This document shows, piece by piece, positions 1 through 9,210 of a stretch of 12,617 nucleotides of DNA. The stretch is from positions 1 through 12,617 of the forward strand of contig JBEKYR010000073.1 of the NCBI GenBank assembly GCA_049510745.1, given 5' to 3'. Numbering within the stretch: position 1 is the stretch's first letter; every line of letters starts with the position of its first letter. Origin of the DNA: Verrucomicrobiota bacterium (GTDB lineage Bacteria > Verrucomicrobiota > Verrucomicrobiia > Limisphaerales > Palsa-1400). The notes under the pieces were generated by a model. That model ran no database searches, was not told the origin of the DNA, and saw nothing but the letters and a program-made list of their open reading frames with translations. The position numbers and the translations under genes are program-made.

Positions 1-54
1 GATTTTGACTGCTCCGAATTCAAAGTGCAGATCGGCCAAAATGTGTAAACGCAT
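1..54 (-). CDS. Metallophosphoesterase (calcineurin-like), N-terminal 18 aa only; runs off the window
   Basis: ATG at 54 gives MRLHILADLHFEFGAVKI, with the beta-strand plus D-x-H first metal-binding motif of calcineurin-like phosphoesterases. Not in the ORF track. Confidence 0.7.
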   Translation of the reverse strand, partial: MRLHILADLHFEFGAVKI

Positions 55-97
55 AGGTAACTTTATGTTAGGTGAGAATTGCTTAGGAGTTCAAAGT

Positions 98-125
98 GCG
101 GGCGGAAGCTTTCGCCTCCGCCCGC
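98..125 (-). terminator. GC-rich hairpin after the Ro60 gene (weak terminator or stabilising hairpin)
   Basis: GCGGGCGGAGGC-GAAA-GCTTCCGCCCGC followed by only ACTTTG, a poor U-tract. Confidence 0.5.
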
Positions 126-153
126 GTTGTTCCTGGCGTCCTTGAACCGTTCG

Positions 154-1845
154 CTATTCGCGAACAAAGTCCGCGATTACGGCCGGCACCGTCGTGTCGA
201 AGCCGACCACGTCCAGCATGCCGCGGTCGTTCGGGTCGGCGAGGGTGAAGCCGTTGGAGGTCATGCCCACAACGACCGCCTTCGCGTCGCCGACGAACTC
301 GTCGCGATACTGGCGCAGGGCCTGGGCCGGATGAATGTTGCCCGCCCACGTCTCGCTGTCCGTGTAGGTGACAAACGCCGACACGTTCAGCTTGTTGCGG
401 GCGGCCCACACCATTGGCAGGGCGCAATCCGTGCCACCCATCGGGATGGCTTCGATGCGCTTGATAACCTCGGCCAGTCTCATGCGCGGCGAGAGGTTCA
501 CGCGGGTGATGCCCGGTTCGCCGCCGCCATGCATGCCGCCGTAACGACCCTGTGCCGGAGCCGAGAACGCGATGATCTCGCATTCCGGTTCGGTTGCAGC
601 CGTGATCAGTGCCATCGCGGCGCTGCCTTCGCGGGCCGAGATGCATGAACCCGCGATCATCGAAGCCGCCATTGAGCCGCTCACGTCCAGCGCCAGCAGC
701 ACCGGCTTGTCGCATGGTTCCACGTTCTGGAACGTCGCGTAAAACGCTTCGTCCAGAGCGTCCACCACGGCCGACACTGGCGACCACTTGAGCGCGCCCT
801 TGTCGCCATGGCCCTGGGCGTAGATTTTCTGCGCCACAAGGACCGCCAGCGGGTGGATGCGCGCACGCCTGAGCGCCGTCTCGTCACGCAGCTTGCGGAC
901 GACCAAACGCTTGGCGTCGCTGAAGGGAGCCAGCAGACCGAGGCCAGTCATCTTGCCGAGGTTGCGGATCATCGCCGTCATCGGCATGCGTTCAAGCAAG
1001 GCTTCCCACACAATGGCTTCATTGAGCCACTGCGTTGGGATGGCTTCACGCGGCAGATCGAATTCGTTAATGAGCTTCACGATTTCGCCTGCGCTCGAAG
1101 CGCGCTTGGCCTGCTCGAAGGCTTCGATGAGCTTCGGCAGTGCGCCGACCGCGCCATACTTGGCAACACGGTCTTCACCGCGCACCTTGCGCTTCACTTC
1201 ACGCTCACCTAGCGAATCCGCGCCGGCCAGCAACCAGCGGAAGACCGATTCGTGCTGGGGCGACGGAGCCTTCGGGTGGGCAAGGCGGAGCAAGTCGCCG
1301 TGAGACCAACCATCGCGCTGCTGATACTTCACCGCCTGGTGCGCGAGATCATCGGCATCGCGGTAAACATACCAGTCGCCAACTCCATTGCGCAGACCAC
1401 GGCCCCAGCCGCGCATGGCGTTCACGTATTCAGCGAAGTGGAACAGATGCGTGCCAATGCGGCAGACCTTGTTCAAGATCGCGAATGCGTGCGCCTTCGC
1501 CCGGGCGTCACCATGGGTGACGGCGAGTGCCAGGGCGAAGATGGCCGGATCATTCTTGGGCGCGCGGCCCGCATCGCTGATCTCAACGATGCGGTTGACG
1601 GCGCGCACGCCATCCGCCTTGATGCAACGGACAATCGCCTCGTGGTTCTGCTTCACCAGATCGCGTTCCGTGATGTAATACGTGCCACCCTCGGCGCCAA
1701 GGATGAGGAAACGGTCAAGCCGCGTCCAGTCATCCACTTCCCAGGAGAAGCCGCCACCGGAGTTGCGGATCTGGGTCGAACCCGGGATCGGCTGCAATTG
1801 GGGAGTGATGCGGCGATTGAACTGACGTGCGTAGTTGATAGCCAT
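154..1845 (-). CDS. rsr: Ro60 orthologue (TROVE domain plus vWA domain), 563 aa
   Basis: N-terminal NSGGGFSW..LDRFLILGAEGGTYY, KYQQRDGWSHGDLLRLAHP, vWA MIDAS DVSGSM, GGTDCALP, TDSETW, C-terminal GMLDVVGFD; SD AAGGAGG at 1851-1857; adjacent Y RNAs. Confidence 0.97.
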   Translation of the reverse strand: MAINYARQFNRRITPQLQPIPGSTQIRNSGGGFSWEVDDWTRLDRFLILGAEGGTYYITERDLVKQNHEAIVRCIKADGVRAVNRIVEISDAGRAPKNDPAIFALALAVTHGDARAKAHAFAILNKVCRIGTHLFHFAEYVNAMRGWGRGLRNGVGDWYVYRDADDLAHQAVKYQQRDGWSHGDLLRLAHPKAPSPQHESVFRWLLAGADSLGEREVKRKVRGEDRVAKYGAVGALPKLIEAFEQAKRASSAGEIVKLINEFDLPREAIPTQWLNEAIVWEALLERMPMTAMIRNLGKMTGLGLLAPFSDAKRLVVRKLRDETALRRARIHPLAVLVAQKIYAQGHGDKGALKWSPVSAVVDALDEAFYATFQNVEPCDKPVLLALDVSGSMAASMIAGSCISAREGSAAMALITAATEPECEIIAFSAPAQGRYGGMHGGGEPGITRVNLSPRMRLAEVIKRIEAIPMGGTDCALPMVWAARNKLNVSAFVTYTDSETWAGNIHPAQALRQYRDEFVGDAKAVVVGMTSNGFTLADPNDRGMLDVVGFDTTVPAVIADFVRE

Positions 1846-1904
1846 GGTGGCCTCCTTTATATGTGCGCGCCGCCAACTCCCGGCACGGGTTTTCTATCGG
1901 TTAA

Positions 1905-1973
1905 ACTGCGGACAAGTTGGTGAATGTGGGGTTGGTCATTTGAAGTGATAACCCATGTTCTTCGGCCCGCAGT
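1905..1973 (-). ncRNA. Y RNA, minimal 69 nt, no tRNA-like domain (YrlB-like)
   Basis: 5' ACUGCGGGCCGAAG...UGGGUUAUC and 3' CUUGUCCGCAGU form the terminal stem with the bulged-C Ro60 site; resembles the metazoan Y1 5' end GGUCCGAAG..GUGAGUUAUC. Confidence 0.85.
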
Positions 1974-1987
1974 CAATGAGCTTGCGA

Positions 1988-2235
1988 TTATTCGCGGAAA
2001 AAAGTGATTCCTGAGAGCGCCGTCATATCGGCCGGTGCGGAGACAACATTTCTTAAAAGCTGCGTCCAGAGCCGCATGGGCACAGGTCGTTCCGGCCCAG
2101 CTTTTCGCTGAGTTCCTAATTCCCGTGAACGAGGCGCACGCCGCGTTTCACCTGTGTTTCGGACGGGAAACCCTTGCGACGTTTGCCGGTGATTTCGAAA
2201 CTTGAGTCTTCCTGATCGTGAGCATGGTTTGACAT
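1988..2235 (-). CDS. Small SEC-C (Zn-binding) protein, recoded or pseudogenised (in-frame TAG, +1 shift)
   Basis: SD GGAGG at 2240-2244, ATG 2235: [59 protein letters not shown]. The +1 frame continues [19 protein letters not shown]. The 3' end is uncertain. Confidence 0.75.
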
Positions 2236-2265
2236 ACGGCCTCCTGGTTTGAGTGTTACGGTTGA

Positions 2266-2290
2266 TTCATCGCGGCCGCGCCGTGATGAA
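2266..2290. other. Hairpin between a Y RNA and the SEC-C ORF
   Basis: TTCATCGCGG-CCGCG-CCGTGATGAA inverted repeat. Confidence 0.5.
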
Positions 2291-2296
2291 ATTTCA

Positions 2297-2422
2297 GATG
2301 GGCAAGGGACGCCATGGAATTACTCCTTGCGGAGGCTGCTCTACCGTTGAGCTACTGCCCCTTCAAGGGGGCAGATCGGACTCGAACCGACAACCGACGA
2401 TAACCCACAACTTCGGCCCATC
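2297..2422 (-). ncRNA. yrlA: Y RNA, YrlA type (circularly permuted tRNA-like domain)
   Basis: GAUGGGCCGAAG..UGGGUUAUC / CUUGCCCAUC Ro stem; T arm GUCGG-UUCGAGU-CCGAU, loop-closed acceptor-like stem, D arm UAGCUCAACGGUAGAGC. Confidence 0.92.
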
Positions 2423-2430
2423 AAATCAAA

Positions 2431-2554
2431 AGCGGACAAGAATGCGACTGTGGAGTTGCCCAGTGTGCTGCCTTTAGACCACCGCGGAATCTTCCGCGGG
2501 GCGGAATTGAACCGCCACTGCCGGGCCCCGATAACCCACAATCTATGGCCTGCT
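2431..2554 (-). ncRNA. Y RNA, YrlA type
   Basis: AGCAGGCCAUAG..UGGGUUAUC / CUUGUCCGCU stem; T arm GGCGG-UUCAAUU-CCGCC; closed CCGCGGA/UCCGCGG stem; D-like UGGUCUAAAGGCAGCAC. Confidence 0.85.
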
Positions 2555-2563
2555 AAAGAGAAC

Positions 2564-2694
2564 CGACGGATAAGAAACGAACTGGAAATTAACGTGCTCT
2601 ACCACTGAGCTACCCCGGCATATGGAGCCGGAGGCGGGATTCGAACCCGCGTCCACGCGCTTCGTAGGCGATAACCCAATCCTGCGATCCGTCG
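2564..2694 (-). ncRNA. Y RNA, YrlA type
   Basis: CGACGGAUCGCAG..UGGGUUAUC / CUUAUCCGUCG stem (compensatory AU/AU change); T arm GCGGG-UUCGAAU-CCCGC; closed acceptor-like stem; D arm UAGCUCAGUGGUAGAGC. Confidence 0.9.
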
Positions 2695-2708
2695 AAAAGC
2701 TAAAAACA

Positions 2709-2816
2709 TAGACGGACAAGAGGCGAGGTGGAAATCCATCGGTTGCCCAATGGCGCGGGATTTGCATCCGCTCGCGGTTTCCCGCTTACGATAATCCAAA
2801 CTCAACGGCCCGTCTA
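2709..2816 (-). ncRNA. Y RNA with G55-type T arm and no D arm
   Basis: UAGACGGGCCGUUG..UGGAUUAUC / CUUGUCCGUCUA stem; GCGG-GAAA-CCGC hairpin, T-like GCGGA-UGCAAAU-CCCGC, CCAUUGG-GCAA-CCGAUGG hairpin. Confidence 0.8.
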
Positions 2817-2819
2817 AAT

Positions 2820-2896
2820 TGACGCTCCCGATGGGAATCGAACCCACGTTTCCCGGACTAAATCCGGACATTCTCTCGCGGTTGAACTACGGGAAT
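2820..2896 (-). tRNA. tRNA-like gene with UUA anticodon (ochre/amber suppressor-like, or pseudo-tRNA)
   Basis: Cloverleaf ATTCCCG/CGGGAGC, D stem GTTC/GAAT, anticodon arm TCCGG-ATTTAGT-CCGGG, T arm GTGGG-TTCGATT-CCCAT, G73, ends TCA rather than CCA. Confidence 0.7.
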
Positions 2897-2981
2897 ATCC
2901 GGCACCCTCCTGCTGAATGCAGCACGGATGTCGGACGCGGTCTGGTCCGAGACCAACCTAGGTTGCGCCTTCGGAAAGTTC

Positions 2982-3110
2982 AGATGGACAAGTGGCGTGA
3001 TCGAACGGAGGCACTCCATGCCGGGAATCGAACCCGGACCGCCAAGGCTTTCGCCACGGACGGTACGCCCTCCTTATGGTGGAGGATAAACGATCAACTT
3101 CGGCCCATCT
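2982..3110 (-). ncRNA. Y RNA with T arm and extra hairpins
   Basis: AGAUGGGCCGAAGUUGAUCGUUUAUC / CGAUCA..CUUGUCCAUCU stem; T arm CCGGG-UUCGAUU-CCCGG; additional GAAA-capped hairpin. Confidence 0.82.
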
Positions 3111-3114
3111 AAAT

Positions 3115-3190
3115 TGGTCAGGAAGTCGGGATTCGCACCCGAACCGTCGCGTTCACAACGCGGAATGCTGCTGTTACACCACAATCCTGA
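3115..3190 (-). tRNA. tRNA-His(GTG), atypical
   Basis: Anticodon loop TTGTGAA; T loop TGCGAAT; encoded CCA; A73 and no G-1:C73. Confidence 0.8.
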
Positions 3191-3197
3191 TATGAAA

Positions 3198-3273
3198 TGG
3201 AGCCCCGGGTCGGACTCGCACCGACGATTACGAGCTTACGAAACTCGCCCTGTCGCTTCTGAGGCACTGGGGC
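3198..3273 (-). tRNA. tRNA-Thr(CGT)
   Basis: CGAGT-TTCGTAA-GCTCG; GCC..GGC acceptor, U73, CCA; T loop TGCGAGT. Confidence 0.87.
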
Positions 3274-3277
3274 AAAA

Positions 3278-3355
3278 TGGTGTCCACGGCAGGAATCGCG
3301 CCTGCGACCTCCACCTTCGCGCGGTGGCGCTCTGATCTAACTGAGCTACGCGGAC
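3278..3355 (-). tRNA. tRNA-Arg(GCG)
   Basis: CCACC-GCGCGAA-GGTGG (G32, C33); T loop CGCGATT; CCA. Confidence 0.85.
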
Positions 3356-3358
3356 AAT

Positions 3359-3436
3359 TGGCATCCGTGATCGGACTCGCACCGATTAGGCCTGGCTTGA
3401 AAGACCGGCTGCTCGATCTGCTTTGCATTCACGGAC
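3359..3436 (-). tRNA. tRNA-Glu(TTC)
   Basis: Loop CTTTCAA; acceptor GTCCGTG/CACGGAT, G73, CCA; T loop TGCGAGT. Confidence 0.87.
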
Positions 3437-3440
3437 GAAA

Positions 3441-3515
3441 TGGCCCCCGAAGTTGGTATCGCGCCAACGTCTCCTCCTCTTCAGGGAGGCGCTAATCTGC
3501 CTCAGCTACTCGGGG
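3441..3515 (-). tRNA. tRNA-Phe(GAA)
   Basis: CCTCC-CTGAAGA-GGAGG; T loop CGCGATA; G73, CCA. Confidence 0.87.
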
Positions 3516-3552
3516 AAATGGCTCACTGAGCCGTAGCTTGGAGAGCGAAAAC

Positions 3553-3626
3553 TGGTCGTCCCGGCAGGTAACGCTCCTGCTTCTTCCGGTTATCGACCGG
3601 AGGCTCTGCTTTTGAGCTACGAGACG
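3553..3626 (-). tRNA. tRNA-Ile(GAT)
   Basis: TCCGG-TCGATAA-CCGGA (C33); T loop AGCGTTA; A73, CCA. Confidence 0.87.
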
Positions 3627-3772
3627 GTGGTTAATTGGGGCTTCAAGCCAAACCGCTTCGCGGGACGGAAAACGATATTCACCTTCCCGGTTGGCCGGAT
3701 TCGCATGGCGCGAAAAGGCTTGTAGCTCCTGCGAAAGAGCAATTGGCTTTGATACTGAAGAACGGTCTTCAT
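3617..3772 (-). CDS. Putative 51-aa basic small protein inside the tRNA array
   Basis: SD-like AAAGGAAAG just before ATG 3772; MKTVLQYQSQLLFRRSYKPFRAMRIRPTGKVNIVFRPAKRFGLKPQLTTVS; fills the largest gap in the array; the stop overlaps the tRNA-Ile 5' end. Confidence 0.45.
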   Translation of the reverse strand: MKTVLQYQSQLLFRRSYKPFRAMRIRPTGKVNIVFRPAKRFGLKPQLTTVS

Positions 3773-3800
3773 GGGCTTTCCTTTCGTTGAGGGTTAATAT

Positions 3801-3887
3801 TGGCGGATGGTGTAGGGATCGCACCCACGCAGCCCGCAGGCTCACTCGGTTTTCGGGACCGGGGCATTACTTCTCTGCCAACCATCC
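3801..3887 (-). tRNA. tRNA-Ser(CGA)
   Basis: Loop CCCGAAA (C33), long variable arm, GGATGGT/ACCATCC, G73, CCA; T loop TGCGATC. Confidence 0.9.
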
Positions 3888-3895
3888 GAGCAAAT

Positions 3896-3969
3896 TGGCT
3901 GCCAGACTTGGACTCGCACCAAGACAAGCGGCTTAACAGGCCGCCGTGCTACTTTGACACCACCTGGCA
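3896..3969 (-). tRNA. tRNA-Asn(GTT)
   Basis: GCGGC-CTGTTAA-GCCGC; U1-A72, G73, CCA; T loop TGCGAGT. Confidence 0.9.
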
Positions 3970-3970
3970 A

Positions 3971-4046
3971 TGGCGCTGCCGGCAGGATTCTCACCTGCAT
4001 CGATCCGCTTAGAAGACGGATGCCTGATATGTTCGGCCACGGCAGC
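3971..4046 (-). tRNA. tRNA-Arg(TCT)
   Basis: TCCGT-CTTCTAA-GCGGA; T loop TGAGAAT; G73, CCA. Confidence 0.9.
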
Positions 4047-4053
4047 ATGGAAA

Positions 4054-4129
4054 TGGTCGGAATGGCAGGATTTTCACCCGCGGCCTCCCGGTCCCAAGCC
4101 GGGTGCTCTGAAGACTGAGCTACATTCCG
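4054..4129 (-). tRNA. tRNA-Pro(TGG)
   Basis: CCCGG-CTTGGGA-CCGGG; C1-G72, A73, CCA; T loop TGAAAAT. Confidence 0.92.
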
Positions 4130-4136
4130 TGAAAAA

Positions 4137-4212
4137 TGGCGGACCCGAAGGGAGTTGCACCCTCAACCCTCCCGCAGACAACGGGGCGCTCTGCTGATTG
4201 AGCTACGAGTCC
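4137..4212 (-). tRNA. tRNA-Asp(GTC)
   Basis: Loop TTGTCTG (U37); GGA..TCC acceptor, G73, CCA; T loop TGCAACT. Confidence 0.87.
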
Positions 4213-4216
4213 GAAA

Positions 4217-4304
4217 TGGTGGGAAGTGCTGGTAACGCTCCAGTCGTCGCTTCCAGCTTGTTTGAAGACACCGGTTTTACAGACCGGCAGCCGGATCACT
4301 CCCT
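4217..4304 (-). tRNA. tRNA-Tyr(GTA), D arm essentially absent
   Basis: CCGGT-CTGTAAA-ACCGG; long variable arm; only about 10 nt between the acceptor and anticodon stems; T loop AGCGTTA; A73, CCA. Confidence 0.78.
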
Positions 4305-4309
4305 AAAAT

Positions 4310-4387
4310 TGGTAGCGGGGGCAGGAATCACACCTGCCTCAAACGGTTTATGAGACCGTCCTCTGTGCTTTAGTCGAGTTCCCCGCA
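4310..4387 (-). tRNA. tRNA-Met(CAT), initiator-like 1:72 mismatch
   Basis: ACGGT-CTCATAA-ACCGT; acceptor TGCGGGG/CCCCGCT with U1:U72; T loop TGTGATT; CCA. Confidence 0.85.
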
Positions 4388-4393
4388 GTGAAA

Positions 4394-4468
4394 TGGTGGA
4401 GTCGATGGGTAACGCTCCCATATCAACTTGCTTGCAAGGCAAGTGCATTACTTGTCTGCCACGACCCC
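4394..4468 (-). tRNA. tRNA-Ala(TGC)
   Basis: CTTGC-CTTGCAA-GCAAG; G3:U70 and A73 identity elements kept; T loop AGCGTTA; CCA. Confidence 0.92.
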
Positions 4469-4474
4469 GGAAAA

Positions 4475-4546
4475 TGGCAGGCTGCCTCCGTGCCGCCCGG
4501 AGTACGCTGAGTTTTGGAGACTCGGCCGCGTGCTGACGCTCAGCCT
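4475..4546 (-). tRNA. tRNA-Trp(CCA), shortened D arm
   Basis: Loop CTCCAAA; G73, CCA; D arm GCGT-CAGC-ACGC; T loop GGCGGCA. Confidence 0.8.
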
Positions 4547-4555
4547 GTGAATGAA

Positions 4556-4632
4556 TGGTGCGGCTGCCGGGAGTTGCGCCCGGACTTCCTTCGTGGCGGG
4601 GAGGCATTCTGCAAAGGTTAAATTACAACCGC
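4556..4632 (-). tRNA. tRNA-Gly(GCC)
   Basis: Loop CCGCCAC (C33); GCG..CGC acceptor; A73; T loop CGCAACT; CCA. Confidence 0.85.
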
Positions 4633-4643
4633 GGAAATTAAGA

Positions 4644-4671
4644 GGGCCGGGAGCGTTCAGGTTCCCGGCCC
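4644..4671. other. Strong hairpin just 5' of the first tRNA
   Basis: GGGCCGGGA...TCCCGGCCC inverted repeat with no long U-tract. Confidence 0.6.
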
Positions 4672-4981
4672 ATGCCATTTCAACAAAGAACAAACACCTC
4701 TTGGCGATCTACTCGATCCCAACCCGCGGTTTCACGGCGGCTGTTTCGGTGTTTAGGGGCACACCTCCTGCGAAGCCCTTAATATGTAAATCTAAAATTC
4801 GTTTCGTTCGTCTTGGTGACGCTGTCTTCTGGTCGTGGGCAGACCCCACCGGTGAGGCTTCTCTGCTCGTCCTCGCCAAAAACAATTTGTCGCCAAAAGA
4901 CATCACCTGGATGTCGCTCTATTTTTGCTCACAGATCGTTCGTCTTTCGTTATCTGCCATTCTCGTCTCAGTCATACAGGG

Positions 4982-5018
4982 AAAATAAAAAACCCTGCTT
5001 ACACGCGGTAAGCAGGGT
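4982..5018 (-). terminator. Intrinsic terminator of a transcription attenuator
   Basis: Minus strand ACCCTGCTTAC-CGCGT-GTAAGCAGGG-TTTTTTATTTT. Confidence 0.92.
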
Positions 5019-5040
5019 GAATAAATTCTCTTTCGATTCG

Positions 5041-5211
5041 TTACCTGCTTACAGCCAGTCTATCCAAATTGCCTTCGGGTTGCTCTCCAATAGGCACCAA
5101 GGATAGTCCAAGGCCAAACACATGGCCTTGGGTGTACCGGCTATGACGTGTCGCTTTCGCGACCGCCATTGTCGGCCAACTCGTGGCTGATATGCTTAAG
5201 CAAGTCTTCAT
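5041..5211 (-). CDS. Putative attenuator leader peptide, 56 aa
   Basis: MKTCLSISATSWPTMAVAKATRHSRYTQGHVFGLGLSLVPIGEQPEGNLDRLAVSR*; TAA immediately follows the antiterminator; no clear SD. Confidence 0.65.
   Translation of the reverse strand: MKTCLSISATSWPTMAVAKATRHSRYTQGHVFGLGLSLVPIGEQPEGNLDRLAVSR
5044..5053 (-). promoter_or_regulatory. Antiterminator strand
   Basis: TGTAAGCAGG is an exact copy of part of the terminator 3' arm, so it can pair with the 5' arm CCTGCTTAC (5008-5016); it lies in the last codons of the leader ORF. Confidence 0.8.
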
Positions 5212-5223
5212 CGAACTTAAAGA

Positions 5224-5283
5224 CGTATAGCACATGCCACTGGTTACATGCAAGAATTAATTTGAAAATTTTACAAATATTTT
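5224..5283 (-). promoter_or_regulatory. Candidate sigma70-type promoter with AT-rich UP element
   Basis: TTGCAT (5253-5248), 18 nt, then TATACG (5229-5224) preceded by TG-C; AT-rich tract 5254-5283; the -10 is imperfect. Confidence 0.45.
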
Positions 5284-5370
5284 GCGGGCGGGGCAGGTCC
5301 AACTGGAATTCACATATTCGGATTGGTTGATGCGAACGTCATTTATCCCAAGGTTTGGGAGGAAAGCAAC

Positions 5371-5973
5371 TCAGGCGACCGACTCCTTCCAGCGAGACCG
5401 CTGGGAAGGAGGCAAGTAGCCGAACAGGAGATCCATGCTTTCTTGGAAGGTGGTCTCAGGTTCGGCTTGCTGGCAATAGCGGTGGTACACTTCGCAGGCA
5501 TGGCGGCGCAGTTGTTCAACGGGCGCGGCACTCAAGCCGGCGTGGGCGAAGGTGCCGATGAGCATATCCAACAAAGGAACGAACTCGGCGTCGTCGAGGG
5601 GCTTTTGATCGTTGTAGCTGAACCAGTGATCGAGTTGGATTTTCCCGAACCGCAGCAAGGTGGTTTCCGTGTCTGTGGCCGAGTGGTTCTCGGTTTTGGG
5701 CGGAGGAGGGTGGATGATGGCAGTCTCCGTGGCACCGTGCAAAGGCGGCAGTTCTTCGGCGGGAAGGCGTAGCGTGATGCTTCGCGCCTGGCCCGGCACG
5801 CGAGAAATCAGCCCGCGTCGCTCCAGGGTCAAAATCATTTGATGCACGCTCGGAGGTGTGACCTGGAAGAATTGCATCATCTCCGCCTCCGCCGGCGGAC
5901 GCCCGTGCAGAGTGATGTAGTGGTTTATGTAGGCCAGGAACTGGCCTTGCCGCGAGGTATAGGGCGGTTTCAT
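5371..5973 (-). CDS. LexA-type winged-helix DNA-binding protein with unrelated C-terminal domain
   Basis: YTSRQGQFLAYINHY..GRPPAEAEM..F.VTPPSVHQMILTLERRGLISR.PGQARSI resembles the LexA N-terminal domain; no S24 peptidase domain is evident. Confidence 0.8.
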   Translation of the reverse strand: MKPPYTSRQGQFLAYINHYITLHGRPPAEAEMMQFFQVTPPSVHQMILTLERRGLISRVPGQARSITLRLPAEELPPLHGATETAIIHPPPPKTENHSATDTETTLLRFGKIQLDHWFSYNDQKPLDDAEFVPLLDMLIGTFAHAGLSAAPVEQLRRHACEVYHRYCQQAEPETTFQESMDLLFGYLPPSQRSRWKESVA

Positions 5974-6755
5974 AGAATGTGCGTCCGCTTCTGCGACCGC
6001 GTGTTCTTCCGCAACTGTTGCAAACGTTCCAGATTGTTGGCAGGCAGGTCGTAAGCAGCAGGGGCAAGCTGGACTGCTTTCTCCAAGACCTTCTGTGCCT
6101 TGTCGAACCGGCCCAATTCTGCCAGTCCCCAGCCATAGTCATTGAGCACCGAGCAGTTGTTGGGGTCATTGGCGACGGCCCTTTCCAGCCACGGCAAGGC
6201 TTCCTGTTTTTTCCCGGCGCGGCACAAAGCCCAACCCAGGCCAATAATAAACTCCTGCTCGCCCGGGCTGGCTGCCAAGGCGGCCTCATACAGGCGGCAG
6301 GTGTTGGCGGCATCGCCCGCGTCCATCAATGACTGGCCAGCTTTGTCGATAATTTTAATCCAATCCGTGGTCTTTGGTGAAAGCTGCGTCAATTGGAGCA
6401 GCAACCTCATGCCTTCCGCCTTGCTGCCGTAGCGATGTTCATAACAGCCAACTGTCAGCAAGGCAGGAGCATATTCCGGGTCAATGGCCAAGGCGGCAAA
6501 TCCTGGGGGCCACTCGGGCGCAGGCAATCGCTCGCCCTGAAGGCTGGCCACCGCTGCCCCAAACAGGCTGTCACTTATGCTTACATCATAAGCCCACTCC
6601 GCCGCCGCCCGGCGCTTCGAGGCGGGTTTTCGCGCGTAGTCGGCTCGGAGGGCTGAAAGTTCCGGGTCGCGGGCCAGCAGTTCGGCGAAGCATTGCATCG
6701 TGAGGATGGCTGGCTTGGTTCTGGCGGTTTTTTTGGCCATGCTTGGGCTCCTCAT
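5970..6755 (-). CDS. Tetratricopeptide repeat protein
   Basis: TPR-like helices (LGWALCRAGKKQEALPWLERAVANDP; YGWGLAELGRFDKAQKVLEKAVQLAP); 4-nt overlaps with neighbours. Confidence 0.85.
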   Translation of the reverse strand: MRSPSMAKKTARTKPAILTMQCFAELLARDPELSALRADYARKPASKRRAAAEWAYDVSISDSLFGAAVASLQGERLPAPEWPPGFAALAIDPEYAPALLTVGCYEHRYGSKAEGMRLLLQLTQLSPKTTDWIKIIDKAGQSLMDAGDAANTCRLYEAALAASPGEQEFIIGLGWALCRAGKKQEALPWLERAVANDPNNCSVLNDYGWGLAELGRFDKAQKVLEKAVQLAPAAYDLPANNLERLQQLRKNTRSQKRTHIL

Positions 6756-7303
6756 TGGCGGCTTTCATGCATTTCTTCCAGCTTGTCCACGAAGCGGGCC
6801 ATCTCTTCAATTTTCATGAGGCTGAAACCGTTAAGCCCGTTACCGTGGCGGGAATCATAATGCTGGCAATAATCCGCCGCCAGTTTGTAGCCGTGTGCGG
6901 GTGAGTCAGAATGCCAGAGATAGATGGCTAGCGCCTGCTCCACGAGCATCAGGTTCCAGTCATGGATGATGCGCACCGGGCCCCATTGCTGGTACTTGTA
7001 TTCATTTTGGAATTTCCGAAGCCGATCATGCAACACCTTTGCCAATTTACGGTCCATTTTGGGGGCGTACGGGTTCACGCCGGCCAGCAGTGCCCGGGCC
7101 TGGCGCAAAAGCTCAGCCGCTTCAACCCCGGTTTTGCCCTTGCCCGAGATGGCCCGACTCGCCACCCAGATGGCGAACGAAGGCTGCCGCCCTGCCAGCC
7201 CAAACCACTTCTTCAGGACTGTCAACCGGGTAAGATTTGCATTGCCGCGCGACCCGATCTCGGCAGAGATTTTCAGGAGTTTTTCGGAAATGTCGGTGCG
7301 CAC
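6752..7303 (-). CDS. Hypothetical protein (about 183 aa)
   Basis: Likely GTG start at 7303 (VRTDISEKLL..), just after the upstream stop; the longer 7507 start overlaps the upstream gene. Confidence 0.7.
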   Translation of the reverse strand: MRTDISEKLLKISAEIGSRGNANLTRLTVLKKWFGLAGRQPSFAIWVASRAISGKGKTGVEAAELLRQARALLAGVNPYAPKMDRKLAKVLHDRLRKFQNEYKYQQWGPVRIIHDWNLMLVEQALAIYLWHSDSPAHGYKLAADYCQHYDSRHGNGLNGFSLMKIEEMARFVDKLEEMHESRQ

Positions 7304-7322
7304 AGCCAAATGTCCCTGTTCC

Positions 7323-7847
7323 TCAGGTTCCGGGCGTGGCGTCTGGCGGCAGCAGGCCCATCTGTTTGGCCAGTCCCAGCGAGACCACGAATCCATTCGA
7401 CAACTGCACATCCGTGAATGTGTCCACAAAAGCGCGTCGGCATAGGCCAGGTTCAGAGTGCTGGTGCAAGCGCAGCGTTCGTTCGATCTCGGTGGCTTTG
7501 CCCCCAACCGTTGTCTTTTTCACCTGGAAAAAATCGCAAATCGTGTCGAAAGTCAGATGCGCCGGCTGGCTTGGGTCAAAGAGGAAATTCATCCGTGCGA
7601 TAACGTGCGTCACGGAGGCTGCCCAGACGGTCGGGTTGCCCCGGCGGCAATCCAGACGTTTTGACCGGCAGACACGCTTCCAGAGATCGAGTGCGAAGCC
7701 CGTCAACTCCGGATCCAAATGTGCCGCGCCGAAACTCGTGATGCTGGCTGACACTTCGCAAAAGCGCTCCTGTTTTTCCTCTGCCACCCCAGCACTGTGT
7801 TTTGATTCCGCACCGATGCGGGACGAGTCGTTTTGGATTTCATTCAT
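7323..7847 (-). CDS. DUF6398-like protein
   Basis: WAASVTHVIARMNFLFDPSQPAHLTFDTICDFFQVKKTTVGGKATEI motif recognised from memory; ATG 7847 avoids overlap. Confidence 0.7.
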   Translation of the reverse strand: MNEIQNDSSRIGAESKHSAGVAEEKQERFCEVSASITSFGAAHLDPELTGFALDLWKRVCRSKRLDCRRGNPTVWAASVTHVIARMNFLFDPSQPAHLTFDTICDFFQVKKTTVGGKATEIERTLRLHQHSEPGLCRRAFVDTFTDVQLSNGFVVSLGLAKQMGLLPPDATPGT

Positions 7848-7912
7848 GAGATTGATCCTACCAGTCTGCCGGGCGGGTTCAAGCCAGTGATGCCAATTCA
7901 GCCATCTATTGT

Positions 7913-8521: not shown

Positions 8522-8763
8522 AAGCGTCTTTGTAACAAAAACTAGCTAGTTTTTATTACAATAACAAGTCAATTTCACCTCGCATCAGATGTAGTGCCTG
8601 AACGGCAGCGGCGCTTTCGGCACGGCCGGGCCACTGATGAAAACTTCGCCTGCGGCATCAGCGAATTTGAGCGTCACTGGTACTCCGTCGGCAGAATAGA
8701 TCAAAATTGGGGCGCATCGTGTGGAATCGATTACGACTCCTGAGATGGTCCGTCTTTATCGCC

Positions 8764-9210
8764 TCATGCACCGCAACACTTTTTGAATTTCTTACCGCTG
8801 CCGCACGGGCAGGGATCGTTGCGTCCGACTTTGGGTTCGGAACGACGCACGGGCATCGCTGGCGCAGGGAGGGAGGTCGTCGGAAAAAAAGGCGCCTGTG
8901 GGGCCGGTCGCTGCCGGGCCAGAAGTTGAAGATTGTATAACGCCATGAACTCGTCCAGGGCATGCCGGTCGCCGAGATCAACGCCTGCTTTCAGGGCTGC
9001 CATCGCGAAAGTTTTGGCTGGTCCCCAATGGCGTTCATCCTGCGAGGCGGCAATGACTTCCGTATCCAATTCGGCCGCGGTCTTAGCCAGAGCGCGGGCA
9101 TTGCTCAACAAGCCCTTCTCCTCCAGGAAGATGAAGAACGCCGACAGCACCGGGGCCACCGCCTGGAAAAAGGCGAGTTCGGCTGACATTTTTCCGGGCA
9201 GAGTGCTCAC
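8764..9210 (-). pseudogene. SEC-C motif protein, probably 5'-truncated
   Basis: C-terminal [22 protein letters not shown]; coding-like only from about LPGKMSAEL; upstream sequence is not protein-like. Confidence 0.6.

Follow-up and report, generated by a model that had tools for sequence, protein, structure and literature searches.

The window analyzed here is the entire 12.6-kb contig (12,617 nucleotides) of a Limisphaerales (Verrucomicrobiota) MAG from a soil organism. It is a short contig, and all sequences compared with it are MAG contigs as well. All components between positions 1 and 5283 lie on the minus strand, and the unit thus reads from 5253 to 1 (Table 1). It starts with a promoter-like block, followed by leader ORF1 with a terminator and an antiterminator, leader ORF2 running through an 88-nt element, and a second terminator. 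Then come 16 tRNA genes with a 51-aa microprotein among them. Six Y-RNA-like genes, a single tRNA-like gene, and a small SEC-C gene follow, before the gene of the RNA-quality-control protein Ro60 and the opening 18 codons of a metallophosphoesterase gene. The initial annotation had described a co-oriented promoter/leader/tRNA/Y RNA/SEC-C/Ro60/phosphoesterase unit, and each of the parts it listed was found in this interval.

Table 1. Features of the locus in order of reading, with the evidence for each.
Feature	Coordinates	Strand	Evidence
Conserved box upstream of promoter-like block (CATCAACCAATCCGAATAT..GAATTC)	5305..5333	-	conserved columns, 28-sequence leader alignment
Promoter-like block: TTGCAT (5253-5248), 18-nt spacer, extended -10-like TGnTATACG (5232-5224)	5224..5253	-	conservation
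Leader ORF1, 56 codons + TAA	5041..5211	-	open in homologs, dN/dS, amino-acid/codon content
Antiterminator half (GTAAGCAGG), 9-nt copy of T1 3' arm, ending at ORF1 stop codon	5044..5052	-	pairing with T1
Intrinsic terminator T1, 11-bp stem + T6	4985..5018	-	terminator scan (5018-4992 + T run)
Leader ORF2, 64 codons + TAG; alternative GTG start 4906	4709..4903	-	open in homologs
88-nt near-invariant RNA element, inside and just past ORF2	4693..4780	-	alignments, alifold
Terminator-like hairpin T2 (GGGCCGGGA..UCCCGGCCC + UCUUAAUUU), adjoining first tRNA	4633..4671	-	compensatory changes
tRNA-Gly(gcc), G55 type, T-loop CGCAACT	4556..4632	-	relaxed ARAGORN
tRNA-Trp(cca), G55 type	4475..4546	-	manual cloverleaf: acceptor 6/7 pairs, T stem 5/5, T-loop GGCGGCA, tail GCCA
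tRNA-Ala(tgc), G55 type, G3:U70 (read from sequence)	4394..4468	-	ARAGORN, Rfam
tRNA-Met(cat)-like, G55 type, 1-72 mismatch, T-loop TGTGATT	4310..4386	-	weak Rfam tRNA match (23.2 bits); manual
tRNA-Tyr(gta)-like, G55 type, long variable arm, odd D arm, T-loop AGCGTTA	4217..4300	-	manual
tRNA-Asp(gtc), G55 type	4137..4212	-	ARAGORN, Rfam
tRNA-Pro(tgg), G55 type (A56)	4054..4129	-	ARAGORN, Rfam
tRNA-Arg(tct), G55 type	3971..4046	-	ARAGORN, Rfam
tRNA-Asn(gtt), G55 type	3896..3969	-	ARAGORN, Rfam
tRNA-Ser(cga), G55 type	3801..3887	-	ARAGORN, Rfam
Conserved basic microprotein ORF, 51 aa, within array	3617..3772	-	tblastn
tRNA-Ile(gat), G55 type	3553..3626	-	Rfam (45.2 bits); relaxed ARAGORN
tRNA-Phe(gaa), G55 type	3441..3515	-	ARAGORN, Rfam
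tRNA-Glu(ttc), G55 type, T-loop TGCGAGT	3359..3437	-	manual: acceptor 7/7, T stem 5/5
tRNA-Arg(gcg), G55 type, anticodon loop GCGCGAA without U33	3278..3355	-	ARAGORN, Rfam, manual
tRNA-Thr(cgt), G55 type	3198..3273	-	ARAGORN, Rfam
tRNA-His(gtg), G55 type, A73, no evident G-1	3115..3189	-	ARAGORN, Rfam, manual
Y RNA 1, YrlA-like, tRNA-like module, canonical TTCGATT loop	2978..3111	-	Rfam Deinococcus_Y_RNA 46.8 bits (below gathering 80); fold z -3.77
tRNA-like element (ARAGORN 'tRNA-Stop(tta)'), canonical T loop, TCA end	2821..2897	-	ARAGORN, Rfam
Y RNA 2	2709..2816	-	end-paired fold z -2.19; GGATTATC and TCTTGTCCG motifs; no Rfam match
Y RNA 3, YrlA-like: T arm, closed acceptor, D arm	2564..2694	-	Rfam YrlA 44.5 bits (below 69); fold z -2.88
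Y RNA 4	2433..2553	-	fold z -2.00; motifs; no Rfam Y-family match
Y RNA 5, YrlA-like	2297..2422	-	partial Rfam YrlA match 35.5 bits (below 69); fold z -2.06
Small SEC-C gene	1988..2235	-	two +1 shifts needed, TTTT at 2058-2055 and 2003-2000
Y RNA 6, short, without tRNA-like module	1904..1974	-	Rfam ceN72-3_ceN74-2 38.2 bits (gathering 38); fold z -2.96
Ro60 (Rsr), 563 aa	154..1845	-	Pfam TROVE 3.5e-46, vWA_Ro60 2.1e-60
Metallophosphoesterase start, 18 codons, cut by contig end	1..54	-	translation; C74 paralog

Homology to related loci starts at the upstream box, which contains the palindrome ATCCGGAT in relatives and may be an operator or mark the island boundary. The promoter-like block is kept as TTGACT/TTGCAT ... 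TGnTAnnCG in 28 leaders. The promoter candidate proposed earlier coincides with a conserved block, although a sigma-70 consensus scan of 1800-5400 called zero sites; the simple scan misses the block because its -10 element lacks T6. It is conservation that points to a promoter here. The ATG of ORF1 lies 12 nt downstream of the -10-like hexamer, suggesting that the leader of the mRNA is very short or absent, and neither ORF1 nor ORF2 has a clear Shine-Dalgarno sequence.

ORF1 is under selection as a reading frame. Of 28 homologs, 27 keep it open (they are mutually related, so that counts across homologs, here and below, are not independent), and the indels in those 27 are all multiples of three, whereas the other frames of the leader homologs have 2-6 stops. 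Its dN/dS of 0.55 is lower than the values for the shifted frames (1.02 and 0.77). The content of ORF1 is unusual: all 20 amino acids are present in 22 of the 27 homologs and 19 in the remaining five, compared with 1.6% of 18,252 windows of 56 aa from the proteome of the same genome. All 20 are kept in 21 of 26 homologs; if residues were replaced at random to the same degree of divergence, 4.5 would be expected. The number of distinct codons ranges from 35 to 46 (56-codon windows of the same genome: mean 29.8, 99th percentile 37; uniform random codons: mean 36.8) and that of rare codons from 7 to 14, with about 2.4 expected. The stop codon falls 3-10 nt past GCAGG across the open homologs. The terminator T1 is invariant or compensated across the 28 homologs, and base pairing between the antiterminator half and the T1 segment CCTGCTTAC is possible in 98.4% of the 252 cells (28 sequences). 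Covariation in this second pairing is weak, with double changes in only two pairs and 44-49 of 500 shuffles equalling it. The leader ORF with an attenuator that had been predicted is present, its frame open in homologs and its terminator called by the scan.

Between T1 and the array lie another leader ORF and another terminator, both overlooked in the initial annotation. ORF2 starts within a GACATC..GATGTC hairpin. It is open in all 28 homologs (54-65 codons), three of which traverse the conserved element in a different frame; the other frames have on average 3.4 and 2.25 stops. The 88-nt element has covarying hairpins and two GAGGUGU boxes opposite one ACACC. It had no match in Rfam at E-values up to 1, nor in an exact-pattern search of viral contigs, and one genome (G005) has stand-alone copies remote from any leader. 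T2 shows compensatory changes in seven pairs (25 sequences) and was not called by the simple terminator scan.

The 16 atypical tRNAs reported earlier were recovered by combining ARAGORN (11 matches), Rfam (12 matches), and manual dissection. Gly(gcc) and Ile(gat) were contributed by the relaxed mode of ARAGORN, and four further genes, Trp(cca), Met(cat), Tyr(gta), and Glu(ttc), by the dissection, with the Tyr(gta)-like assignment being the least certain of the 16. Position 55 of the T-loop is a G in all of them, and about 95% of array tRNAs have G55 instead of U55 and lack GG18/19. These tRNAs are under selection, since across 35 orthologs of tRNA-Phe the anticodon never varies and compensatory changes affect 12 of 18 pairs, and since the anticodons of the arrays recur between loci. 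tRNA-Gly(gcc) is likewise the first of the array at many related loci. A complete set of housekeeping tRNAs is present elsewhere in the genome. Judging from their sequences, charging under the standard rules looks difficult for some array tRNAs: His (A73, no G-1), Phe (C1-G72), and Tyr (odd D arm).

The microprotein ORF has a ribosome-binding site (AAGGAAAG) and its end overlaps tRNA-Ile. It was found by tblastn (E <= 1e-3) in 31 related loci and matches no family in Pfam. All six of the predicted Y RNAs fold with paired 5' and 3' ends (z between -2.0 and -3.8), and four have Rfam matches, one at the threshold and three below it. Nematode stem-bulge RNAs (sbRNA) are described as homologous to Y RNAs (PMC4726728). 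The element previously read as a UUA tRNA turned out to be something else. All nine homologs compared share the conserved body yet differ in the sequence or length of the 'anticodon' loop. We therefore rejected a suppressor or decoding tRNA and regard it as a tRNA-like element.

The expected SEC-C ORF is present, but as a recoded gene requiring +1 frameshifting. Both shifts, at UUUU, are conserved and under selection, and this copy is inactivated by a premature in-frame TAG at 2118-2116. The Ro60 assignment agrees with the matches to both of its Pfam domains. So does the metallophosphoesterase assignment with its paralog on contig C74: the 18 codons in the window (54-1) have 78% DNA identity to this paralog, which matches Metallophos at 3.4e-12. 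The same gene also comes after Ro60 at another locus (L043).

The arrangement is conserved among relatives. DNA of leader plus array was found in 22 of 24 genomes of the same family and in 33 of the 41 genomes searched. Among 66 related, Verrucomicrobia-type Ro60 loci, 56 have three or more co-oriented tRNAs within a distance of 7 kb, and ten or more are present at 32 of the loci; in total, 626 of 629 tRNAs point in the same direction as Ro60. Arrays also occur at 6 of 14 Ro60 loci of other phyla, all six in Chloroflexota. RtcB is encoded in four and an RNA ligase in two of nine annotated related loci, and related islands also encode a phosphoesterase. On contig C75 an RtcB-like frame lies next to array-B tRNAs, and complete relatives have an additional second tRNA block, RtcB, and RNA ligase.

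We are inclined to see this locus as the front half of a chromosomal Limisphaerales RNA-damage/translation-stress island, organized as one long transcription unit with two serial ribosome-read checkpoints. From its sequence, it would most likely be a translation-stress-induced operon for backup tRNAs and RNA repair, which the two small leader frames probably switch on only when ribosomes translate badly. This reading of an inducible unit builds on the two open leader ORFs, the terminator after each, the amino-acid and codon breadth of ORF1, the conserved arrangement, and the RtcB, RNA ligase, and phosphoesterase of related islands. An inducible system that senses stalling or tRNA loss and supplies tRNAs and RNA-handling machinery had been proposed before; the comparative evidence fits it, although its UUA tRNA and SEC-C details were wrong. 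We infer induction and co-transcription, the mechanism of the second checkpoint, the charging of the tRNAs, and the reason for their altered elbow.

At the first checkpoint, ORF1, beginning near the 5' end of the RNA, would sample every amino acid and a wide range of codons that includes many rare ones. A ribosome that keeps pace with RNA polymerase up to the stop codon would cover GUAAGCAGG, and T1 would form and stop transcription. If the ribosome were stuck at any codon, or never loaded, GUAAGCAGG would be free to pair with the T1 5' arm, allowing transcription to continue. At the second, translation of ORF2 would have to cross the 88-nt element. It may hold this element unfolded, such that T2 terminates, while stalled translation may let the element fold and the polymerase pass T2. 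We found no convincing alternative pairing overriding T2, and this mechanism is thus a conjecture. Read-through would yield a supernumerary tRNA set (16 here, the remainder past the contig end) with a rebuilt A18/G55 elbow replacing G18/U55, the small basic protein, six Y RNAs, the tRNA-like RNA, a SEC-C zinc-knuckle protein produced only via +1 frameshifting, Ro60, and an end-healing-type phosphoesterase. Together with the second tRNA block, RtcB, and RNA ligase of relatives, these products would take the place of damaged tRNAs, clear them, and repair them.

Our literature searches returned no published account of leader-gated tRNA arrays. A precedent is the long tRNA array of Anabaena, which is described as responding to translational stress by induction and as sharing its regulation with rtcB (PMC8421152).

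The sequence, 12,617 nt long, is the whole of one contig (C73) of an assembly comprising 85 contigs and 5.6 Mb. The initial annotation had described a single co-oriented unit on it, made of a promoter candidate, a leader with an attenuator, atypical tRNAs, Y RNAs, a SEC-C ORF, Ro60 and a metallophosphoesterase, and our analysis upholds these components and extends the list (coordinates are collected in the table). All parts of the unit are on the minus strand, and it runs from ~5253 down to position 1, the end of the contig. By Pfam, the genes in the remainder of the contig are unrelated to the unit, and in the alignment of leaders the homology to related loci starts only at ~5333. The gene immediately upstream of the island encodes a 200-aa protein that matches the LexA DNA-binding domain only, with no match to the S24 peptidase. 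It was considered as a regulator of the island and rejected, since the flanks upstream of the leader are not conserved among loci. In the same part of the contig, the C11-peptidase/Calx-beta gene contains an internal tandem duplication, and another segment has a paralog on contig C50.

Coordinates of features in the window, in other contigs of the same genome and in related loci (L-numbers)
Feature	Sequence	Position	Strand	Details
Leader, with segment GUAAGCAGG	window	5340-4630	-	
Conserved box, candidate operator	window	5305-5333	-	
ORF1, start codon (ATG)	window	5211	-	56 codons
Copy of the 3' arm of T1, GTAAGCAGG	window	5052-5044	-	
T1	window	5018-4985	-	
Stop-start motif at ORF2	window	4901-4910	-	
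ORF2	window	4903-4709	-	64 codons
88-nt element	window	4780-4693	-	
T2 hairpin	window	4671-4644	-	
Microprotein ORF	window	3772-3617	-	51 aa
Mini-hairpin ending in CCA, GGCTCAGTGAGCCA	window	3519-3552	-	
'tRNA-Stop(tta)'	window	2897-2821	-	
LexA-domain protein gene	window	5371-5973	-	200 aa
Genes unrelated to the unit (Pfam)	window	5371-12617		LexA-DNA-binding-domain protein, TPR protein, DUF6398, DUF6088/AbiEi, ordinary SEC-C protein, C11 peptidase
Tandem duplication in C11-peptidase/Calx-beta gene	window	10094-10782		341 bp, 85% identity
Segment with paralog on C50	window	6589-7297		82% identity
Stray tRNA-Glu(ctc)	G000:C34	35893-35967		
Second copy of the island	C74 (L001)	5825-11341		
Metallophos gene	C74 (L001)	9904-10650		
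Block-B tRNA-Cys	C74 (L001)	10657		
Block-B tRNA-Arg	C74 (L001)	11147		
Region with block-B-type tRNAs	C75 (L002)	531-8863		
HipA-family gene	C75 (L002)	531-1820		
RtcB-like frame	C75 (L002)	8216-8863		290 aa
Unannotated 312-370-aa ORF	L043	5478-6482		
Unannotated 312-370-aa ORF	L014	5041-6057		
Unannotated 312-370-aa ORF	L022	5211-6323		
Unannotated 312-370-aa ORF	L074	5476-6414		
Leader-like region	L093 (G005:C1:4341500-4349500)	2532-4526		
RtcB-like ORF	L093	3408-4526		372 aa
All-20 ORF	L064	4286-4545		48 codons
All-20 ORFs	L084	1456-2180		
All-20 ORFs	L086	1242-1860		

By record title, the nearest public Ro60 loci come almost all from MAGs of Verrucomicrobiota / Verrucomicrobiia / Limisphaerales. 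We surveyed the best 80 loci, taking one genome per species; 66 were of the Verrucomicrobial type and 14 belonged to other phyla. Among these best 80, at least three co-oriented tRNAs were found within 7 kb in 56 of the 66 Verrucomicrobial-type loci, and at least ten in 32 of them, and 626 of the 629 tRNAs had the orientation of Ro60. Arrays lie beside Ro60 in 6 of the 14 loci of other phyla, all six of them Chloroflexota. Typically, the leader is followed by tRNA block A (Gly ... His), the Y RNAs, the SEC-C gene, Ro60, sometimes a phosphoesterase, and then a tRNA block B, which in related loci comprises Cys, Arg, Leu (three times), Ile(tat), Arg, Gly, Val, Glu, Thr, Leu, Lys, Gln and others. 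Taken together, blocks A and B of the related loci cover all 20 amino acids. The synteny that the initial annotation had proposed to look for in relatives is thus present, with the order kept across 56 of the 66 loci. DNA of the leader and array was found in 33 of the 41 related genomes searched, 22 of the 24 same-family genomes among them, and a genome often holds several copies.

Two other contigs of the same genome carry related material. On C74 there is a second copy, with a leader 93% identical to the one studied here and with tRNA block A, from which the Y RNAs and nearly all of Ro60 are gone; it continues into a Metallophos gene and block-B tRNAs. C75 has block-B-type tRNAs with G at position 55 of the T loop (Ile tat, Glu ctc, Leu gag, Gln ttg), an RtcB-like frame and a HipA-family gene, and it probably continues one of the two islands. 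A Pfam search on 126 ORFs of nine related loci identified RtcB in L018 (twice), L022, L043 and L064, RNA ligases in L043 and L082, an R2K ATP-grasp protein, HNH endonucleases and one integrase. RtcB is thus found in these four loci, and as the frame on C75, and not in the window, where the contig ends. Neither the 12 ORFs of the window nor the 126 ORFs of the nine loci have an RtcR-type domain (CARF plus sigma-54 activator), and the 126 ORFs showed no sigma-54-activator domain. Four related islands, but not the window, have an unannotated ORF of 312-370 aa between the Y RNAs and the SEC-C gene, which matches no Pfam family.

The 28 homologous leaders align across ~570 nt. They share the boxes TTGACT/TTGCAT and TGnTAnnCG, 17-18 nt apart; a simple sigma-70 scan does not call this block, so it is its conservation that marks it as a candidate promoter. 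Another conserved box, 50-80 nt upstream of the -35-like hexamer, contains the palindromes GAATTC and, in relatives, ATCCGGAT, and is a candidate operator that might add a layer of control. Past the promoter-like block, at 12-14 bases, a conserved ATG opens a frame of 56 codons, ORF1. It is open in 27 of the 28 homologs (56-61 codons) and frameshifted in L074. Among the 27, indels are multiples of three, and three-base insertions ahead of the stop codon leave the stop in frame. The other frames have 2-6 stops each, and the median pairwise dN/dS is 0.55 in frame versus 1.02 and 0.77 in the others. The sequence GCAGG always stands 3-10 nt before the stop codon of ORF1. The leader also holds a copy of the 3' arm of the hairpin T1, which a terminator scan calls. 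This copy, a putative antiterminator, can pair with the 5' arm of T1 in 98.4% of 252 cells, and the 9-bp pairing ends at the stop codon; covariation between the two is weak, with double changes at only two pairs. The arrangement of ORF1 and T1 thus appears to follow the logic of classical attenuators. No Shine-Dalgarno sequence is evident for ORF1 or for ORF2, the second leader frame. A known family of leader RNA (T-box, riboswitch, GOLLD/ROOL-like) was considered and dismissed, as positions 4469-5400 had no Rfam match at E up to 1, and no UGGN bulge was seen in the leader by eye.

What sets ORF1 apart is its composition. All 20 amino acids are present in 22 of the 27 homologs and 19 in the other five (Tyr is absent from four, Phe from one), a property found in 1.6% of 18,252 windows of 56 residues from the genome's own proteome. 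The median number of copies of C, D, E, F, H, W and Y is one each, and the positions of Y and C vary from homolog to homolog. All 20 are kept in 21 of 26 homologs, versus 4.5 of 26 predicted by random replacement at the observed divergence, a control that assumes independence of homologs that are in fact related. Codons are diversified as well: ORF1 has 35-46 distinct codons, at least 38 in 26 of the 27 homologs, versus a mean of 29.8, a 99th percentile of 37 and a maximum of 44 in 17,218 windows of the same genome, and a mean of 36.8 (sd 2.4) for uniform random codons. Between 7 and 14 of its codons belong to a rare class that makes up 4.3% of the codons of the genome. The peptide therefore reads as a census of the amino acids. 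The regulatory content of the leader would then match the regulated genes in a modified way, with an all-20 leader placed before a family of arrays that covers all 20.

Similar frames occur in the arrays of Chloroflexota. In an Ardenticatenaceae locus (L064), an ORF with all 20 amino acids lies ~200 nt before the first tRNA and contains a copy (GCCCGCGC) of the 3' arm of the downstream terminator-like hairpin. L084 and L086 each have two longer all-20 ORFs upstream of the first tRNA. Of these five ORFs (48, 89, 107, 81 and 93 codons), all but the one of 93 codons are followed by a terminator-like hairpin, i.e., both ORFs of L084 and only the first of L086. Since all-20 ORFs and hairpins precede the arrays in these three loci, there are hints that the leader logic extends to Chloroflexota.

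A second module separates T1 from the array. ORF2 is open in all 28 homologs, when the other frames have on average 3.4 and 2.25 stops. In most homologs TGATG, TAGATG or TAAATG precedes its start, an overlap of stop and start that might link ORF2 with a very small frame upstream. ORF2 extends 68-71 nt into an element of 88 nt that is near-invariant at every position, third codon positions included, while its flanks diverge by ~25%. The hairpins of the element covary, from CCGC/GCGG to CCAC/GTGG (a change that alters the encoded amino acids) and also in a GAUC hairpin, and two GAGGUGU boxes stand opposite one ACACC. Three of the 28 homologs read the element in another frame and still keep ORF2 open, which suggests that the passage of the ribosome matters and not the peptide. 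T2 follows ~40 nt past the element as a GC hairpin with seven compensated pairs, whose U-rich tail adjoins the first tRNA; the terminator scan does not call it, and no alternative pairing able to override it was identified in the leader.

The 88-nt element has no match in Rfam. It was tried as a phage feature and as the mark of a regulon, and neither idea held: the exact pattern had 0 matches in viral contigs, the genome itself holds only two copies (on C73 and C74), and the stand-alone copies in another genome, G005, precede no gene. These lone elements, in five regions (L094-L098) of contig C1 of G005, follow a small HTH-like ORF and short repeats of the GTAATC type and precede convergent genes; they may represent the end of a mobile element or a small RNA gene. 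On the same contig, L093 has a leader-like region in which the element and a terminator-like hairpin stand ahead of an ORF whose likeness to RtcB was judged by eye from its N-terminus.

The array itself was reported initially as 16 tRNAs, and this number is borne out. ARAGORN called 11 and Rfam 12 in the window, ARAGORN with relaxed parameters added Gly(gcc) and Ile(gat), and four further cloverleaves, Trp(cca), Met(cat), Tyr(gta) and Glu(ttc), appeared when the strand was cut at every NCCA followed by (A)TTT. The most irregular of the 16 are Tyr and Met. With 16 tRNAs in 1.5 kb, the density is ~10 per kb up to the contig end; L-arrays are defined by at least 20 tRNA genes at a minimum of 2 per kb (PMC4758250), and in related loci the default ARAGORN count is 19-21 for several and 25 for L086. 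The array is supernumerary: canonical tRNAs for all amino acids are on other contigs, with 53 ARAGORN calls outside C73-C75. Between tRNA-Ile and tRNA-Phe there is in addition a mini-hairpin ending in CCA, which might represent a minihelix, what is left of a tRNA, or a signal for processing.

The array tRNAs differ from the housekeeping set at the elbow. On the array contigs of the genome, 28 of the 29 tRNAs have G55 and only 7 of the 29 have any GG in the D loop, versus T55 in 48 of the 53 housekeeping calls and GG in all 53. The five calls off the array contigs that lack T55 comprise four seemingly false ones and one stray array-type gene, a tRNA-Glu(ctc) on contig C34 that has an array-type T loop (TGCGATT), lacks the G18G19 pair at the place where the housekeeping tRNAs have it and lies among housekeeping contigs. 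Across the Verrucomicrobial Ro60 loci, G55 is present in 584 of 613 well-parsed tRNAs, versus 0 of 76 in loci of other phyla. A rough rule based on position assigns A to the place of G18 in 234 of 384 cases. The 19-56 pair still covaries (G-C 202, U-A 20, U-G 20, C-G 12). The 35 orthologs of tRNA-Phe compared have compensatory changes at 12 of the 18 stem pairs and never vary in the anticodon or at G55, and anticodons recur across loci. These patterns argue that the array tRNAs are genes under selection and not relics. Signs of charging are mixed. G3:U70 is retained in tRNA-Ala, and CCA is encoded in 26 of the 29 array tRNAs, but likewise in 47 of the 53 housekeeping genes; against easy charging, tRNA-His has A73 and lacks G-1, and tRNA-Phe begins with C1-G72. 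Our guess is that the elbow was rebuilt to escape either a nuclease directed at the elbow or T loop, or modification and quality control.

All six Y RNA candidates fold with paired ends (z from -2.0 to -3.8) and lie on the same strand within 1.3 kb upstream of rsr. They have in common GGGCCGAAG..GGGTTATC at the 5' end and CTTGYCC at the 3' end, motifs that we take to resemble the animal Ro-binding helix. A tRNA-like module with T arm, closed acceptor and D arm is found in Y1, Y3, Y4 and Y5, with GGTTCGAWTCC loops, and GTAGCTCA..GGTAGAGC occurs in Y3 and Y5; the module is weaker in Y2 and absent from Y6. Four of the RNAs have matches to Rfam Y families. Three fall below threshold (YrlA, 44.5 and 35.5 versus 69; Deinococcus_Y_RNA, 46.8 versus 80) and one reaches it, with the nematode sbRNA model (38.2 versus 38), so we filed the six as Y-RNA-like by anatomy and position, not by score. 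Always immediately before Y2 is the gene called 'tRNA-Stop(tta)', with a conserved tRNA-like body and a canonical T loop. It had been annotated as a UUA tRNA, and we rejected it as an ochre suppressor of the TAG/TAA in the SEC-C ORF: its 'anticodon' loop is different in all nine homologs compared (6 nt in two of them), so that it has no fixed anticodon or constant loop, whereas the shift site of the ORF is constant.

Among the proteins of the unit, Ro60 is identified unambiguously, with a TROVE domain (PF05731, 3.5e-46) followed by vWA (PF25045, 2.1e-60). The metallophosphoesterase has only 18 codons in the window; Metallophos is matched by its paralog on C74 and by the gene after Ro60 in L043. 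A basic microprotein ORF with a ribosome-binding site lies within the array between tRNA-Ser and tRNA-Ile. It has no Pfam family and was found by tblastn (E of 1e-3 or better) in 31 related loci, just upstream of tRNA-Ile.

The SEC-C ORF recognized in the initial annotation does match the SEC-C profile, but over its full length only with +1 shifts of frame, and in the window it is broken by a TAG at codon 40, where homologs carry a Lys codon. In related loci the zero-frame ORF stops at a conserved AGC-TTT-TAA/TAG directly after CPCGSGRSF. This first site is TTT_TAA or TTT_TAG in 23 of the 28 tabulated loci, the window included, and the CxC...TTTT site is found in 29 loci. The +1 frame continues with (K/R)(N/K)CC LRSGRYDG.. 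RNH and restores exactly the CxC-x8-CC spacing of the normal SEC-C protein encoded in the window. Over 28 distinct segments of 51 nt, pN/pS is 0.21 in the +1 frame versus 1.77 and 1.45 elsewhere. Exactly 51 nt after the first site, 28 of the 29 loci have TTTTTT, where a further +1 step leads to a stop two codons on; the place of this stop is fixed while its identity varies (TAA 11, TAG 6 and TGA 4 of the 21 counted). When TTTT is read as one step, a protein of 79-81 aa results in 21 loci and one of 92 aa, from an earlier ATG, in two more, i.e., in 23 of the 30 loci in which our script detected the SEC-C ORF. The shifted product matches 19 of the 19 profile positions (37.8 bits), versus 13 of 19 (26.6 bits) for the zero-frame product. 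The exceptions are the window, with its TAG, L051, without the second site, L062, L073 and L077, without TTTT, and two mis-hits of the regular expression; the +1 frame of L077 still encodes DGSRRNHF.

From these sequence patterns, the gene is best read as using two programmed +1 slips of tRNA-Phe on UUU_U. TAA as a sense codon was rejected, the zero frame having no Cys-Cys pair and evolving at a pN/pS of 1.45. A single +1 shift leaves tails of 28-134 aa with no conserved stop, and the two-shift reading was adopted instead. The data do not distinguish slippage from general quadruplet decoding of TTTT; the window yielded no tRNA whose anticodon loop has 8 nt. In prfB, which encodes RF2, a programmed +1 frameshift occurs at CUU_U before an in-frame stop, with an upstream Shine-Dalgarno stimulator. 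The first site is like it in that the P-site codon re-pairs in +1 (UUU_U here, CUU_U in prfB), the in-frame stop comes next and the downstream frame is under purifying selection. It is unlike prfB in having no Shine-Dalgarno-like stimulator 3 nt upstream (the context, GGACGCAGC-TTT-TAA, lacks an AGGAGG-like box), in having a second +1 shift 18 codons later at UUU_UUU_C, without a stop codon, and in yielding an 81-aa SEC-C protein. Because this protein is not a release factor, an autoregulatory logic is not evident. A dependence of its synthesis on slow decoding or termination would nevertheless fit a unit gated by stress.

We propose the following mechanism. In healthy translation, ribosomes would finish ORF1 and ORF2 in step with the polymerase and transcription would end at T1 or T2. 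A ribosome completing ORF1 would hide the antiterminator, and one held upstream, or absent, would leave it free. Hold-up or failed loading could come from a missing aminoacyl-tRNA (through anticodon nucleases, other tRNA damage or starvation) or from a drug; the T1 antiterminator would then form, and supposedly the element before T2 as well. Translation would keep the 88-nt element unfolded, and the folded element would carry the polymerase past T2. Once in the array, the polymerase would produce a transcript whose processing frees spare tRNAs, Y RNAs and the tRNA-like RNA, and whose coding portions are translated into the microprotein, SEC-C protein, Ro60 and phosphoesterase; full islands would add block B, RtcB and RNA ligase. 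By analogy with Ro60/Y RNA particles and RtcB operons, RNAs that are broken or misfolded would be dealt with by Ro60 and the Y RNAs, and RNA ends would be repaired by the ligases and the phosphoesterase (PMC4201824, PMC7790460). We regard this reading, a ribosome-gated operon for spare tRNAs and RNA repair, as probable. The earlier proposal of an inducible unit that senses ribosome stalling or tRNA loss is supported by the comparative data in its anatomy and conservation, and loses the UUA tRNA as a decoding tRNA and an intact SEC-C gene in the window.

Other explanations have to be weighed against the ribosome-gated operon. The unit might belong to a mobile element (a prophage, an ICE or an island spread by homing endonucleases) and serve the translation or counter-defence of that element, in the manner of phage tRNA arrays, instead of the stress response of the host, with leader ORFs that only time expression. 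HNH endonucleases in or beside the arrays of L013, L064 and L086, the integrase at the left edge of L022, the several copies per genome (one of them partly deleted, on C74) and the variable flanks upstream of the leader would all fit, and so would the horizontal spread described for long tRNA arrays (PMC8421152) and the combination of tRNAs, RNA ligases and sometimes TROVE proteins in jumbo phages (PMC7824862). Yet there are no phage structural or replication genes among the 12 ORFs of the window or the 126 of the nine related loci, viral contigs lack the exact 88-nt pattern, and the presence of the island in 22 of the 24 genomes of the family fits a long vertical residence; we consider this explanation unlikely. 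That the leader is instead a structured non-coding RNA of 570 nt (riboswitch, protein-binding leader or large ornate RNA), with open frames that are by-products unread by ribosomes, would account for the many covarying hairpins within ORF1 and ORF2, for conservation of the element at the nucleotide level despite the codons it holds, with covariation that changes amino acids, for its occurrence alone elsewhere and for the missing Shine-Dalgarno sequences. It is difficult to reconcile with frames open in 27 (ORF1) and 28 (ORF2) of 28 homologs when the other frames have stops, with indels of ORF1 that, bar one frameshifted homolog, are multiples of three, with a stop that stays in frame after insertions, with an all-20 property held against drift and with the lack of any Rfam family at E up to 1, and it appears very unlikely.

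The tRNAs could also be non-decoding, i.e., decoys or sponges for tRNA-directed nucleases, or substrates or partners of Ro60 and the Y RNAs, whose anticodons only mimic targets. The universal G18/U55 contact is indeed replaced in 584 of 613 array tRNAs, the identity elements expected of a tRNA are missing from some of them, the same unit includes a tRNA-like RNA whose anticodon loop varies freely, and a sponge role for operonic tRNAs was raised by the authors of the Anabaena study (PMC8421152). On the other hand, the two blocks span all 20 amino acids with anticodons conserved across related loci, the tRNA-Phe orthologs have compensated cloverleaf pairs and an invariant anticodon loop, the 19-56 pair covaries, tRNA-Ala keeps G3:U70, CCA ends are encoded in 26 of 29, and in Anabaena 23 of the 26 operonic tRNAs are aminoacylated in vivo (PMC8421152), all of which makes a purely non-decoding role distinctly unlikely. 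The same compensatory changes and invariant anticodons, together with a single atypical T loop in 584 of 613 tRNAs from many genomes and an order conserved over 56 of 66 loci, speak strongly against a decaying relic of pseudo-tRNAs without present function. The broken SEC-C gene of the window, the C74 copy without Y RNAs and Ro60, and the 5 of 16 tRNAs missed by default ARAGORN could be taken as signs of decay, but this explanation is strongly disfavoured and exceedingly improbable.

Returning to the ribosome-gated operon, a bolder version can be formulated, which is speculative and, taken as a whole, unlikely to be right. The island would be an emergency kit of ~35 tRNAs with a rebuilt elbow (A18/G55 in place of the universal G18/Psi55, with 19-56 still paired) that dodge attack on the elbow or T loop, or modification and quality control, and its release would take first the census leader and next an antiterminator RNA gated by translation. 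The SEC-C protein, made only by two slips of tRNA-Phe on UUUU, possibly promoted by the variant tRNA-Phe of the array, would gauge the quality of decoding and tune the action of Ro60 and the Y RNAs. If the ribosome-gated reading itself holds, bacteria would control tRNA genes and Ro60/Y RNA quality control directly via the performance of ribosomes, with a leader peptide built for testing all amino acids at once as the sensor. This would give an answer to the purpose of silent spare tRNA arrays, and Ro60, Y RNAs, RtcB and end-healing enzymes would be co-located with them. The array would offer a full set of naturally occurring tRNAs that have another contact in place of the near-universal G18-Psi55, with a bearing on tRNA structure, modification enzymes, toxin evasion and orthogonal tRNA design, and a conserved bacterial gene needing two +1 frameshifts would be a rare case of recoding.

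Judged from its anatomy, the unit appears to combine three kinds of system: an L-array, a Ro60/Y RNA repair locus and a leader-peptide attenuator. We found no published account of the census leader, of the A18/G55 tRNA set (or of G55 with A18 in the T-loop context of tRNA), of the doubly frameshifted SEC-C gene or of any link between SEC-C and programmed frameshifting. In the main texts of the openly accessible literature searched, no tRNA array was found with Ro60, Y RNA, rsr or TROVE, and none under leader-peptide attenuation. The closest known system is the long tRNA array of the cyanobacterium Anabaena PCC 7120, which is described as silent, induced by translational stress and aiding survival, and as linked or co-regulated with rtcB and HNH genes; the same report describes long arrays as horizontally spread and lists Verrucomicrobia among the phyla that have them (PMC8421152). 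Both are dense operons of supernumerary tRNAs beside a dispersed housekeeping set, and related islands here have links to rtcB and HNH endonucleases. The Anabaena array is controlled at its promoter, where direct repeats are bound by the RHH repressor TrcR (PMC10272220), whereas here two leader-ORF/terminator modules stand ahead of the array. A term search of PMC8421152 returned no mention of Ro60, attenuator, leader, T-loop, G18 or U55.

In Salmonella, RtcR binds tRNA halves and activates the rsr-yrlBA-rtcBA operon (PMC7790460). This operon and Ro60-YrlA RNPs resemble the unit in placing Ro60 beside tRNA-like Y RNAs and, in relatives, RtcB, and they share a functional tie to damaged tRNAs (PMC4201824, PMC7790460). 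The unit differs in its six Y RNAs versus two, in its whole tRNA arrays and in a control apparently exerted via translation.

Leader-peptide transcription attenuators are known from trp, his, ilv and pheA. As in these, a short ORF is followed by a terminator, and an alternative pairing would be masked by a finishing ribosome, so that a stall leads to read-through. Here, however, tRNAs and non-coding RNAs would be controlled and not enzymes or regulators, ORF1 is not rich in one amino acid but has all 20 with codon diversity maximised, and there are two tandem modules, the second built around a near-invariant RNA element. Switches in which a uORF responds to translation stress are known from whiB7 and topAI/toiL (PMC10274678, PMC12121999). 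Finally, jumbo phages are reported to carry tRNAs, RtcB, Rnl, end-healing enzymes and occasionally ROT/TROVE proteins as a kit against tRNA-cleaving attack (PMC7824862). The unit and its relatives are like these phage clusters in bringing together tRNAs, RNA ligases, end-healing enzymes and a TROVE protein, and unlike them in being chromosomal in a bacterial family, with a defined operon order, gating by leader ORFs and an altered tRNA elbow.
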